Origin: Escherichia coli
GTDB taxonomy: Bacteria > Pseudomonadota > Gammaproteobacteria > Enterobacterales > Enterobacteriaceae
Assembly: GCF_003991155.1 (NCBI RefSeq)
Contig: NZ_CP031293.1
Length of the DNA stretch: 64,000 nucleotides
Strand: one strand, 5' to 3'
A program made the position numbers. This document shows positions 31,983 to 34,900 of this stretch, piece by piece. How positions within the stretch are numbered: position 1 is the first letter of the stretch; each line of letters starts with the position of its first letter.

Positions 31983-34900
31983 TTATCTCCTCATAACGCC
32001 TGGATTTTGGCCCACACGCTGTCATCAACGGTGATGCCGTTACGGCGGTTTTCGGCCAGCAGGGTAGTAAATTCGTGGCCGGGTAAGCGGATGGCCTGGT
32101 TTTCGTCAGCGCGTTCAGCGGTAGTAACGTAATCCATGATGCGTTGCAGCTTGGCATCGCGGGTGGGGCCGTCGATCAATTTATCCACTTCGATGGCGAT
32201 AAAGATTTGCGAAACGCCGTATTCGTCGCTGTTGTCCTGGGTGACTTCGGCAACCGATGCGCCGTCGGAAAGGAGAGTGGCGATCATATCCAGCACAATC
32301 GACATGCCCGAACCTTTCCAGTAACCCATCGGCAAAATGCGGCGATTTTTCTCGATAACGCCAGGTTCTTTGGTCAAATTGCCCTCATCATCAAAGCCAC
32401 CATCGACCGGGAGCTGACGACCTGCCAGACGGTTAACTTCTAACATGCCGTAAGAGAACATCGACATCGACATATCGACCATGGTGATTGGGGTAGAAGG
32501 AATGGCGACGATCAGCGGGTTGGTGCCGATGCGACACTCTTTTGCGCCCCACGGCGGCATTACGGCGATGGAGTTGGTCCAGCAAATGCCAATATAGCCT
32601 TTTTCCGCCGCCTGCCAGCCGTAGCTGCCGCCGCGCATCCAGTGGTTGGCATTACGTAGTGCCACCAGACCAATACCGTGATCGGCAGCCAGTTCAATGG
32701 CCCGATCCATCATCTTTTTCGCTGTCAGGTTACCGATCGAACGCTGGGCGTCCCACTGTTCAATTGCGCCGAGGCTGGTTATACGTTTGGGTTGGGCATC
32801 AGGAATGATATCGCCGTTTTCCAGTTGTTGAATGAAACGAGGGAAACGATTAACGCCGTGAGAATAAACGCCGGATTCGGTGGTGCGGGCGAACATCTCG
32901 GCACAGGCATCAGCCGTTTCGCTGTCAACGCCGCGTGAAATTAAGACTCGATTAAAGGCTGCTTTTAACTGCTCAAATGTCACTTTCATCCCTGGCTTCC
33001 TTGTTTTTTTGATCGCTTTTTTGGCTTAAAATTTCAATATGCGAAATCTGATTTCAAATATATCGATCGCTTTTTAACAAAGCAATCTGATTGATGAATT
33101 TCAAAAAACTTAAAAATCAAGTGGTTATAAATTATCTGTCGAGATCGTGAACTACGGCACACTTTGCGCTACCATCAGGACGCGACAAAATGGGGAAAGA
33201 AGTGATGGGAAAAAAAGAGAACGAGATGGCGCAGGAAAAAGAGCGTCCAGCCGGAAGCCAGAGTCTGTTTCGCGGGTTGATGCTGATTGAGATTTTGAGC
33301 AACTATCCAAACGGTTGTCCGTTGGCGCATCTTTCGGAACTGGCTGGTTTAAATAAGAGTACCGTCCATCGCTTATTGCAGGGATTACAATCCTGCGGCT
33401 ATGTGACCACCGCGCCCGCCGCAGGGAGTTACCGCCTGACCACCAAATTTATTGCCGTCGGGCAGAAGGCGCTGTCTTCGCTGAATATCATTCATATCGC
33501 CGCTCCGCATCTTGAGGCATTGAACATCGCCACTGGTGAAACCATTAACTTCTCCAGCCGCGAAGACGATCACGCTATTTTGATTTATAAGCTGGAACCC
33601 ACAACCGGGATGCTGCGAACCCGTGCCTATATAGGCCAGCATATGCCGCTCTACTGTTCCGCAATGGGCAAGATCTACATGGCGTTTGGTCACCCGGACT
33701 ACGTGAAGTCATACTGGGAAAGCCATCAGCATGAGATCCAGCCGTTAACCCGCAATACCATTACCGAGCTGCCCGCGATGTTCGACGAACTGGCGCACAT
33801 TCGTGAAAGCGGAGCGGCGATGGACAGAGAAGAAAACGAACTCGGCGTCTCCTGTATTGCTGTTCCGGTGTTTGATATTCATGGGCGGGTGCCGTACGCC
33901 GTGTCGATTTCGCTTTCGACATCACGTCTGAAACAGGTGGGGGAGAAAAATCTCCTGAAACCACTGCGTGAAACCGCGCAGGCTATTTCTAATGAACTGG
34001 GATTTACTGTCAGGGACGACCAGGGCGCGATCACATAACGCTTTGGACAAGTGCCAAAACTTTAACATTTCCTTCGTTGGATCAAAGCAGTAGAGACGCG
34101 CTCTCTGGCACTCTGCTGTTTTAGTGCAAAGGAGTGATCATGAACCGGTTTATTATTGCGGATGCGACGAAATGTATCGGTTGCCGTACCTGTGAAGTGG
34201 CTTGCGCAGTGTCGCATCAGGAGAATCAGGATTGCGCTGCGTTGTCACCAGACGAGTTTATTTCCCGTATTCGTGTCATTAAAGACCACAGCTGGACCAC
34301 GGCAGTAGCCTGTCATCAGTGTGAAGATGCACCGTGCGCGAATGTCTGCCCTGTTGACGCGATAAGCCGCGAACATGGGCATATTTTCGTTGAACAATCA
34401 CGTTGCATTGGCTGTAAAAGCTGTATGCTGGCTTGCCCGTTTGGTGCGATGGAGGTCGTTTCTTCGCGCAAAAAGGCGAGGGCGATTAAATGCGATCTGT
34501 GCTGGCATCGGGCGACGGGGCCGGCCTGTGTTGAAGCCTGCCCGACAAAGGCGTTGCAGTGCATGGATGTCGAGAAAGTGCAGCGGCATCGGCTACGGCA
34601 GCAGCCTGTTTGAAACGTTTTTCCGGCGTTTCTCAACGCCGGAATAGCGTATTAATGGCTTTCAGCCCAGGCTCTTTCTATCTCTTCCGCCAGAATCTTC
34701 ACCCCCGCCTCAATTTTATCCGGCTCCGGCACGTAGTTCATGCGCATACATTGATGTGTATGTGGCCACGGTTTATCCAGCCCTGGGAAGAAGTTGTGCC
34801 CCGGCACCATCAGCACGCCCCGTGCTTTCAGGCGCTGGTAGAGCTGCTCGGTCGTAATTGGCAAATCCTTAAACCATAGCCAGAGGAAAATGGCTCCTTC

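Follow-up and report, generated by a model that had tools for sequence, protein, structure and literature searches.

Which of the short repeats between the divergent Escherichia coli genes yiaK and yiaJ are read by the IclR-type repressor YiaJ, and which recur there by coincidence? The question arises from a preliminary description of the window (the whole 64-kb stretch of E. coli DNA that was analyzed), in which GATCGCTTTTT was noted twice and ATTTCAA three times between the two gene starts, as candidate operator and architectural-protein sites for the repressor. Our analysis favors, with a probability of roughly 0.8, divergent yiaK-S/yiaJ promoters with a three-box YiaJ operator, activation by CRP, and a predicted IHF bend. 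Directly established are the anatomy of the sequence, its pattern of conservation, and the agreement with published motifs and RegulonDB coordinates. The region is ordinary and previously characterized, and a YiaJ (PlaR) operator on the yiaK start is already described.

Results

The yiaK–yiaJ intergenic region

Positions 32990-33189 are the exact gap between the yiaK ATG (32989, minus strand) and the annotated yiaJ ATG (33190, plus strand), and hold back-to-back promoters for the yiaK-S operon and for yiaJ (plaR), the gene of its IclR-family repressor. An ATG at 33205 is an alternative candidate for the yiaJ start codon. Both yiaK and yiaJ are 100% identical to genes so annotated in E. coli genomes. 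YiaJ carries HTH_IclR (1.2e-14) and IclR_C (1.5e-66) domains and goes by the name yiaJ/plaR in annotated E. coli genomes; this cognate IclR-family regulator gene adjoins the operator described below. The intergenic region is 65% A+T and has a mean column identity of 0.70, the baseline against which the conservation of each element is read. Conservation counts out of 56 refer to non-Escherichia species and those out of 80 to species-level yiaJ loci.

The repeats themselves are present as the preliminary description had them:

33011-33021, plus strand: GATCGCTTTTT copy 1, DNA for the yiaK 5' leader at about +28 to +38
33065-33075, plus strand: GATCGCTTTTT copy 2, yiaK promoter spacer at about -17 to -27
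33031-33037, plus strand: ATTTCAA copy 1
33051-33057, plus strand: ATTTCAA copy 2
33098-33104, plus strand: ATTTCAA copy 3, over the yiaJ start (about 33103-33104) and within the A/T-rich DNA that flanks the IHF core on its 5' side

The 64-kb window contains GATCGCTTTTT three times against 0.05 expected. ATTTCAA shows no enrichment over the window as a whole (18 copies against 16.7 expected), and three of its 18 copies fall inside these 74 bp. When the A/T-rich 200-bp region was shuffled 5000 times with its dinucleotides preserved, 1.9% of the shuffles contained a direct repeat of at least 11 nt and 2.5% contained a 7-mer outside low-complexity sequence at least three times. Given these frequencies, the 11-mer repeat and the triple 7-mer are mildly unusual, not striking. 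A further pair, AATCTGATT (33045 and 33084), was taken as chance because its second copy is unconserved (exact in none of 56 non-Escherichia species, missing in E. coli L002) and repeats of at least 9 nt arise in about 18% of the local shuffles.

A three-box operator on the yiaK start

The first two ATTTCAA copies stand on either side of an inverted box. Together the three read ATTTCAA-TAT-GCGAAAT-CTG-ATTTCAA (33031-33057), with half-sites 10 bp apart and in alternating orientation:

33031-33037, plus strand: half-site H1, ATTTCAA copy 1
33041-33047, minus strand: half-site H2, the inverted middle box, GCGAAAT on the plus strand and ATTTCGC on the minus strand
33051-33057, plus strand: half-site H3, ATTTCAA copy 2, abutting or overlapping the yiaK -10 box
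33037-33061, no strand: 25-bp palindrome ATATGCGAAATC-T-GATTTCAAATAT, the PlaR/YiaJ box, centered at 33049 on the yiaK start
33017-33041, no strand: weak outer 25-mer site, centered at 33029, 20 bp from the main palindrome

H1 and H3 each keep ATTTCA exactly in 52 of 56 non-Escherichia species, and H2 keeps CGAAAT exactly in 46. Among 77 loci, H1 is ATTTCAC in 52, ATTTCAA in 14, ATTTCAT in seven, and ATTCCAC in four; GCGAAAT occupies H2 in 60 and ATTTCAA occupies H3 in 72. Of the 80 species-level loci, 77 have the three boxes ahead of yiaJ, including loci without yiaK as a neighbor. The arms are constrained and the spacer is free: H3 is almost invariant against 14 variants of the H2-H3 spacer, and one locus (L051) carries a symmetric double change, CGAAAC-ATT-GTTTCA. 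CGAAATCTGATTTCA, with one mismatch to TGAAAYNNNRTTTCA, is the sole match at up to one mismatch in the 64-kb window. The 25-bp palindrome and the inverted half-site GCGAAAT, neither of which appeared in the preliminary description, are more informative than the repeats.

H2 is common to two overlapping palindromes, H1/H2 centered at +10 and H2/H3 centered at +1. The first of these, ATTTCAA-TAT-GCGAAAT, fits WTTYCRY-W3-RYGRAAW with one deviation, at a base that is C in most species. Sites have been predicted for b3575 at -73, -53, -60, and -127 (PMC8222616). The -73 site (score 5.90) is the 33037-33061 palindrome, and the -53 site (score 4.40, cATaTTGAAATttTAagcCAaAAaa), 20 bp from it, is the outer site (PMC8222616 supplement). 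Since they are conserved and lie within the published PlaR box and the predicted b3575 sites, ATTTCAA copies 1 and 2 are, by sequence comparison, half-sites of an IclR-type (YiaJ/PlaR) operator. To this extent the proposal that ATTTCAA marks YiaJ operator sites stands, with ATTTCA as the conserved unit; the third copy is a weak case, taken up below.

The outer site has three mismatches to TGAAAYNNNRTTTCA and a poorly conserved left arm; it may be where the second dimer of a YiaJ tetramer binds. On the right side of H3 (33061-33067), reading the sequence turned up no match to a fourth half-site. The poor conservation of the outer fourth half-site counts against an established tetramer footprint. 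Because H2 belongs to two palindromes of different geometry, YiaJ might have two alternative binding registers that exclude each other, or might engage only three of the four recognition helices of an asymmetric tetramer. We consider this unlikely; the idea has been raised for the IclR family by comparative genomics. If true, effector binding or protein concentration would switch the YiaJ register instead of causing simple release. For the three-box operator, we infer both the occupancy of each box and the geometry of a tetramer.

The yiaK promoter and its repression

The operator sits on the following promoter elements:

33048-33049, minus strand: transcription start of yiaK-S (+1), placed to within about 1 nt
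33057-33062, minus strand: yiaK -10 hexamer TATATT, 8-9 nt upstream of the deduced +1, exact in 48 of 56 species
33080-33085, minus strand: yiaK -35 hexamer TTGCTT, with a 17-bp spacer, TTGATC in most other genera

The yiaK start of Ibanez 2000, reportedly 60 bp upstream of the ATG, falls at 33049. The +1 given here was deduced from the RegulonDB CRP site TGTGCCGTAGTTCACG (33146-33161, center 33153.5), placed at -105.5 (PMC3105977 Table S4). The palindrome center at 33049 coincides with this +1 and abuts the -10 TATATT. The TTG of the -35 box (CAA on the plus strand) is exact in 55 of 56 species. A sigma-70 consensus scan returned nothing at a threshold of 9/12; the yiaK promoter scores 8/12, as expected of an activator-dependent promoter. 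Some of the strong conservation across 33028-33062 may stem from the promoter (-10 box and start site) and not from the operator. A terminator-like hairpin on the minus strand (33087-33065) was rejected, as its position is ahead of the yiaK start and the K-12 sequence weakens it.

YiaJ binding has been published at fragment or peak resolution, by gel shift and gSELEX (PMC6958661) and by ChIP-exo (PMC6237786). In published work, the yiaK promoter overlaps with the PlaR box and plaR deletion derepresses yiaK (PMC6958661), and of the two YiaJ ChIP-exo peaks in the region one lies at the RNA polymerase position (PMC6237786). Bound YiaJ would cover about -13 to +32, probably as a dimer of dimers in contact with the weak outer site 20 bp deeper in the leader as well. 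With the start site and the margin of the -10 box inside this span, RNA polymerase would be kept off until an effector releases YiaJ, an occlusion mechanism that we infer from the layout of the site. Candidate effectors include L-ascorbate and galacturonate (PMC6958661), as well as L-ascorbate-6-phosphate, which the title of Campos et al. 2008 gives as the inducer in Klebsiella.

CRP, IHF, and the yiaJ start

The remaining elements lie on either side of the operator:

33146-33161, no strand: CRP site 1, CGTGAACTACGGCACA, activating yiaK-S at -105.5 and repressing yiaJ at +50.5
32978-32993, minus strand: CRP site 2, spanning the yiaK ATG (32989-32987), RegulonDB position +62.5, effect unknown
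33115-33127, plus strand: predicted IHF site AATCAAGTGGTTA, an exact match to WATCAANNNNTTR
33162-33178, plus strand: conserved block CTTTGCGCTACCATCAG in the yiaJ leader, mean identity 0.92, exact in 40 of 56 species

The suggestion that GATCGCTTTTT is an architectural-protein site is not supported; the sequences that fit IHF (33115-33127) and the activator CRP (33146-33161) both fall outside the noted motifs. RegulonDB gives CRP site 1 as an activator at -105.5 (via PMC3105977 Table S4). This site has two mismatches to the TGTGA-N6-TCACA core and shows conserved arms around a free spacer (identity 1.00 for GTGA, 0.98 for CACA, and 0.43 for the spacer). The CRP site 2 entry is CTGGGATGAAAGTGAC at +62.5 (PMC3105977 Table S4); our local scan found AGGGATGAAAGTGACA, with three mismatches to the CRP core. 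Relative to the yiaK start, the predicted IHF site has its center at about -73, which places it between the -35 box and CRP site 1. Its identity follows the consensus (ATCAA 0.93, NNNN 0.45, TT 0.97), and A-tracts at 33103-33114 form its A/T-rich 5' flank. Expression of yiaK-S is reportedly IHF-dependent, a result credited to Ibanez in 2000. CRP at -105.5 activates yiaK-S, and the predicted IHF bend at about -73 would bring it towards a weak promoter (-35 TTGCTT, -10 TATATT); the same CRP site, at +50.5 of yiaJ, lowers yiaJ expression. Because an Rfam search of 32850-33350 gave nothing at E<=1 and the yiaJ leader RNA had no stable fold (z-score 0.34), no RNA element was called.

The yiaJ +1, deduced from the RegulonDB CRP site at +50.5, falls on ATTTCAA copy 3, which could be a functional YiaJ half-site mediating autorepression at the yiaJ start in E. 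coli. Such a role would accord with its retention in 11 of 11 E. coli sequences (ten besides the window), with a weak site predicted there (score 4.02; PMC8222616 supplement), and with a second YiaJ ChIP-exo peak that Gao et al. interpreted as autoregulation (PMC6237786). We find it doubtful nonetheless. Copy 3 has no good-quality inverted partner, E. albertii and E. whittamii have lost it, and none of the 56 non-Escherichia species has it exactly; its distance to H3 of 47 bp, or 4.5 helical turns, would put it on the opposite face; and it could equally well be the A/T flank of the IHF site or simply A/T-rich promoter DNA. We regard copy 3 as a sequence of E. coli only and at most a weak autoregulatory site. 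A CRP-like sequence, ATTGATGAATTTCAAA (33090-33105, three mismatches), was considered as a possible source of copy 3 and set aside, being unconserved and not among the RegulonDB CRP sites.

The 11-mer pair

GATCGCTTTTT had been put forward as a repeated operator or architectural motif, and it could in principle be a genuine repeated protein-binding element, for example auxiliary operators flanking the YiaJ box or nucleoid-protein sites. The low shuffle frequency of an exact 11-mer repeat (1.9%) is in its favor, as is the 54-bp distance between the copies (about five helical turns), which places them on the same helix face, bracketing the YiaJ box. Each copy also contains a moderately conserved part, GCTTTTT in copy 1 and GATC in copy 2. 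These parts differ between the copies, however, so nothing is kept as a repeat, and none of the known motifs fits both.

Copy 1 has a mean column identity of 0.78 and is exact in 14 of 56 non-Escherichia species, with only GCTTTTT moderately conserved. Copy 2, which precedes the yiaJ start by about 30-40 bp, the distance expected of a yiaJ -35 box, is exact in none of the 56, with only GATC conserved. Within E. coli, copy 2 reads GATCACTTTTT in K-12, whose allele is G33069A, and in seven of eight E. coli sampled across 4991 genomes, and GATCGCGTTTT in E. coli L002, where both copies are mutated. The exact pair is a minority haplotype, found in 302 of 4991 genomes (at least 99% identity). Selection on both copies, the mark of a repeated element, was thus not seen in related genomes. 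A shared function for the two copies is very improbable; the pair appears instead to be a lineage-specific coincidence of unrelated segments, leader DNA and promoter spacer.

The conserved GATC at 33065, in the yiaK promoter spacer, together with another at 33143, beside CRP site 1, could make the divergent promoters Dam-sensitive, a reading less likely than that of alternative YiaJ registers. Lower yiaJ mRNA in a dam mutant of Salmonella would agree with it.

The view that all repeats are chance in A/T-rich intergenic DNA, with conservation owed to promoter elements only, can draw on the 65% A+T, a shuffle p of only about 0.02, and a conserved block that includes the -10 box and start site, but it scarcely survives the invariant H1 (+12 to +18) and H2 (+2 to +8), which promoter elements leave unexplained, the conserved-arm/variable-spacer pattern, the symmetric change in L051 and the retention without yiaK, which go beyond such elements, and the match to an independently derived transcription factor motif (PMC6958661, PMC8222616).

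Discussion

What is gained here is a base-level map that separates operator half-sites from coincidental repeats. Beyond annotation the result carries little weight: work on the yiaK-S operon, which serves the aerobic use of L-ascorbate / 2,3-diketo-L-gulonate, and on its regulation by YiaJ/PlaR, CRP, and IHF goes back to 2000, and the operator motif has already been published, from gSELEX and comparative genomics. H1, conserved as well as the published palindrome, offers a concrete target for how IclR-family tetramers read three-box sites.

The PlaR (YiaJ) box of E. coli K-12 (Shimada et al. 2019; Ibanez et al. 2000) is the identical locus and palindrome. On its minus strand the window reads ATTTGAAATCAGATTTCGCAT, compared with the PlaR consensus ATnTGAAACnnnGTTCAnTT (PMC6958661), and the sequence overlaps the mapped yiaK promoter. 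The palindrome core differs, with the ancestral GAAATCTGATTTC in the window versus GAAACTTGATTTC in K-12 and most E. coli. The published box is given without mention of a third box, H1.

Within the IclR family, motifs of three boxes and tandem sites at a spacing of 19-21 bp have been described (PMC8222616). In such sites, as for PcaU, PobR, and HmgR, one box takes part in both a 'group 1' and a 'group 2' pair (Suvorova & Gelfand 2021). For YiaJ, the 'group 1' pair would be H1/H2, with the commonest IclR-family consensus, and the 'group 2' pair, of KdgR-like geometry, would be H2/H3, the published PlaR box. A second YiaJ 25-mer lies 20 bp away, as in the tandem sites of the family, and b3575 appears in both groups (PMC8222616 supplement). 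The extra box of PcaU was found to be needed by experiment, whereas the YiaJ boxes are told apart by comparing sequences.

The KdgR box of the pectin/hexuronate regulons is likewise an A/T-rich GAAA-N-TTTC palindrome and serves a related IclR-family repressor; Shimada et al. proposed PlaR/KdgR co-regulation of some targets (PMC6958661). KdgR differs in being another regulator with another regulon, and the yiaK box has T, not C, beside the spacer in most species. The ulaG-ulaA control region of the paralogous L-ascorbate pathway also combines divergent promoters with a specific repressor (UlaR), CRP, and IHF. UlaR is a DeoR-family repressor whose operators are unrelated to those of YiaJ, and IHF is described as a repressor at ulaG-ulaA.

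The yiaK–yiaJ control region

The yiaK–yiaJ stretch of the window is 100% identical to E. coli chromosomes, and the divergent intergenic region is exactly 32990-33189, the interval of the preliminary description. There, GATCGCTTTTT (twice) and ATTTCAA (three times) were put forward as candidate operator and architectural-protein sites for the IclR-type repressor YiaJ (PlaR, b3575). The repeats were correctly reported: on the + strand, GATCGCTTTTT lies at 33011 and 33065 and ATTTCAA at 33031, 33051, and 33098. Window-wide, GATCGCTTTTT was found 3 times versus 0.05 expected in 64 kb, and ATTTCAA 18 times versus 16.7 expected, which is no enrichment, yet three copies fall within 74 bp. 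In 5000 dinucleotide-preserving shuffles of the 200-bp, 65% A+T intergenic region, direct repeats of 11 nt or longer arose in 1.9% and a non-trivial 7-mer seen at least three times in 2.5%, making the repeats mildly non-random.

Features of the control region (window coordinates)
31991-32989, - strand: yiaK, 3-dehydro-L-gulonate 2-dehydrogenase (annotation; Pfam Ldh_2)
33190-34038, + strand: yiaJ/plaR, IclR-family repressor (annotation; Pfam HTH_IclR and IclR_C)
33031-33037, + strand: half-site H1, ATTTCAA, then spacer TAT
33041-33047, - strand: half-site H2, GCGAAAT on the + strand, inverted, then spacer CTG
33051-33057, + strand: half-site H3, ATTTCAA
33031-33057: three-box operator, about -9 to +18 from yiaK +1
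33017-33061: operator plus weak outer site, about -13 to +32 from yiaK +1
33085-33080, - strand: yiaK -35 TTGCTT, 17-bp spacer to -10
33062-33057, - strand: yiaK -10 TATATT
33115-33127: predicted IHF site, consensus AATCAAGTGGTTA, about -73 from yiaK +1
33146-33161: CRP site 1, TGTGCCGTAGTTCACG, centre 33153.5, -105.5 from yiaK +1

None of the 56 non-Escherichia species matches the annotated yiaJ start, ATG 33190, exactly, and the codon is AAG in E. coli locus L002, E. albertii, and E. whittamii. An ATG in the same frame, at 33205, is matched exactly in 50/56; judged by this pattern, it is probably the true start, giving 277 aa versus 282 aa as annotated.

A conserved three-box pattern

A repeat finder recovered a 25-bp palindrome absent from the preliminary description, ATATGCGAAATC-T-GATTTCAAATAT, centred at 33049. 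The operator core consists of three 7-mers at exact 10-bp spacing in alternating orientation, and by this arrangement around H2 the first two ATTTCAA copies are the outer boxes of a single compound site. Within the 64-kb window, the H2/H3 palindrome is the sole match at one mismatch or fewer to the PlaR box ATnTGAAACnnnGTTCAnTT, which was derived by gSELEX and overlaps the mapped yiaK promoter in the plaR-yiaK spacer; deletion of plaR derepresses yiaK (Shimada et al. 2019, PMC6958661).

Scanning species-representative genomes with YiaJ yielded 80 loci, whose hosts range from Escherichia to Serratia, Pectobacterium, and Edwardsiella. The 59 loci retaining the divergent yiaK-yiaJ arrangement were aligned, and conservation was scored over 56 non-Escherichia species (mean intergenic column identity 0.70 as reference level).

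Exact conservation in 56 non-Escherichia species
H1, ATTTCA: 52/56
H2, CGAAAT: 46/56
H3, ATTTCAA: 52/56
yiaK -10, TATATT: 48/56
yiaK -35, TTG: 55/56
ATTTCAA copy 3: 0/56
GATCGCTTTTT copy 1: 14/56
GATCGCTTTTT copy 2: 0/56

When loci were anchored on the boxes, the three-box pattern was present upstream of yiaJ in 77 of the 80, including loci where yiaK is not the neighbour. H3 is ATTTCAA in 72/77, the H2-H3 spacer takes 14 different sequences, and at locus L051 both arms have changed symmetrically (CGAAAC-ATT-GTTTCA). As read from these alignments, fixed arms, a free spacer, and the symmetric change are the signature of a protein that binds DNA as a dimer and reads both arms.

Further boxes occur at some loci. 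In Pectobacterium, Brenneria, and Serratia oryzae (L068, L069, L071, L072, L073; about 2865-2886 in these loci), a second box, TGAAACGGCGTTCCA, lies ~170 bp nearer yiaJ than the three-box site; its resemblance to the KdgR consensus GAAACGNCGTTTC suggests possible cross-regulation in these bacteria. The longer intergenic regions of Pluralibacter and Phytobacter (L049, L050) carry an extra related box, TTTCGCATAGTGAAATTGAATTTCAC / TTTTACATAGTGAAATTACATTTCAT, upstream of yiaJ.

The GATCGCTTTTT pair and the third ATTTCAA

GATCGCTTTTT copy 1 belongs to the leader DNA (+28 to +38), and GCTTTTT is the only part of it with moderate conservation. Copy 2 falls within the spacer of the yiaK promoter, some 30-40 bp upstream of where yiaJ starts, and of this copy only GATC is conserved. 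As nothing is conserved as a repeat, we regard the exact pair as coincidental and specific to the lineage, and its reading as an operator or architectural-protein motif was wrong. The predicted IHF (architectural) site and the CRP activator site lie elsewhere (33115-33127 and 33146-33161).

ATTTCAA copy 3 lies on the yiaJ start, within A/T-rich DNA that flanks the predicted IHF core on its 5' side; its distance to H3 is 47 bp (4.5 helical turns). The copy is kept along with the other two in 11/11 E. coli sequences (10 besides the window) and lost in E. albertii and E. whittamii. It may serve weak autoregulation in E. coli specifically, though this is unlikely, and the copy requires no such role.

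Eight E. coli genomes, taken at even steps down a ranking of 4991 matching genomes, were compared together with K-12. In 7/8 and in K-12, the second GATCGCTTTTT copy is GATCACTTTTT and the box core GAAACTTGATTTC; the exact 11-mer pair is a minority haplotype (302/4991 genomes at an identity of at least 99%), and both copies are mutated in E. coli L002. The haplotype positions are 33047-33048 and 33069, with operator core GAAATCTGATTTC in the window versus GAAACTTGATTTC in most E. coli including K-12. Since the window form is common to nearly all other genera, the K-12 core is derived.

Promoter map

RegulonDB lists CRP site TGTGCCGTAGTTCACG as yiaK-S activator at -105.5 and yiaJ repressor at +50.5, and a second CRP site over the yiaK ATG (+62.5) with effect unknown (Shimada et al. 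2011 Table S4, PMC3105977). Combined with the centre of CRP site 1, these offsets place yiaK +1 at ~33048 and yiaJ +1 at ~33103-33104. Ibanez in 2000 reportedly placed the yiaK start 60 bp upstream of the ATG, which corresponds to 33049. Across the 56 species, GTGA and CACA of CRP site 1 are invariant and its spacer free; identity in the predicted IHF site is 0.93 for ATCAA, 0.45 for NNNN, and 0.97 for TT.

Conserved GATC (Dam) sites lie in the yiaK promoter spacer (33065-33068, 44/56) and directly abutting CRP site 1 (33143-33146, 48/56), a conservation that the CRP consensus does not call for. In a Salmonella dam mutant, yiaJ mRNA is 2-2.5-fold lower (PMC4213855). The stretch from CRP site 1 to the yiaJ start holds a strongly conserved block, CTTTGCGCTACCATCAG (33162-33178; mean identity 0.92, exact in 40/56), which is explained by no known site and gave neither an Rfam hit nor a stable RNA fold. 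The block is a separable module, since its distance from the CRP site is ~60 nt greater in Rahnella (L063). Candidate roles are a second promoter for yiaJ (-10 TACCAT) and a site for an unknown protein. In L090 (NZ_CP025268.1, an MG1655 derivative, locus 1171-2600), which looks like an engineered strain, galK is inserted in the intergenic region near the equivalent of 33089, so that the IHF and CRP sites are cut off from the core promoter and operator of yiaK.

Repression model and published sites

Most likely, YiaJ would bind as a dimer of dimers over the point where yiaK transcription starts and the margin of the -10 box, excluding RNA polymerase, and an effector would release it. Far-upstream CRP, aided by an IHF-induced bend, would activate the weak yiaK promoter, and the same CRP molecule would impede yiaJ transcription. 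We infer the individual box occupancy, stoichiometry, IHF binding, and occlusion step; the anatomy, its conservation, and its agreement with published coordinates are observed.

Two YiaJ ChIP-exo peaks fall in the yiaK–yiaJ spacer, and one of them coincides with the position of RNA polymerase (Gao et al. 2018, PMC6237786). Published predicted b3575 sites comprise a 25-mer at -73 (score 5.90), which is the palindrome; a second 25-mer at -53 (4.40), 20 bp away; a 19-mer at -60 (5.86), which is the H2/H1 pair; and a weak 19-mer at -127 (4.02) that includes ATTTCAA copy 3 (Suvorova and Gelfand 2021, PMC8222616). All three copies are thus already picked up in print. As an IclR-type operator motif, ATTTCAA holds for copies 1 and 2, which are conserved half-sites within published sites; copy 3, exact in none of the 56 species, is doubtful. 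The YiaJ operator system at yiaK–yiaJ is already known, and three-box motifs and tandem sites 19-21 bp apart recur in the IclR family, consistent with tetramer binding (PMC8222616).
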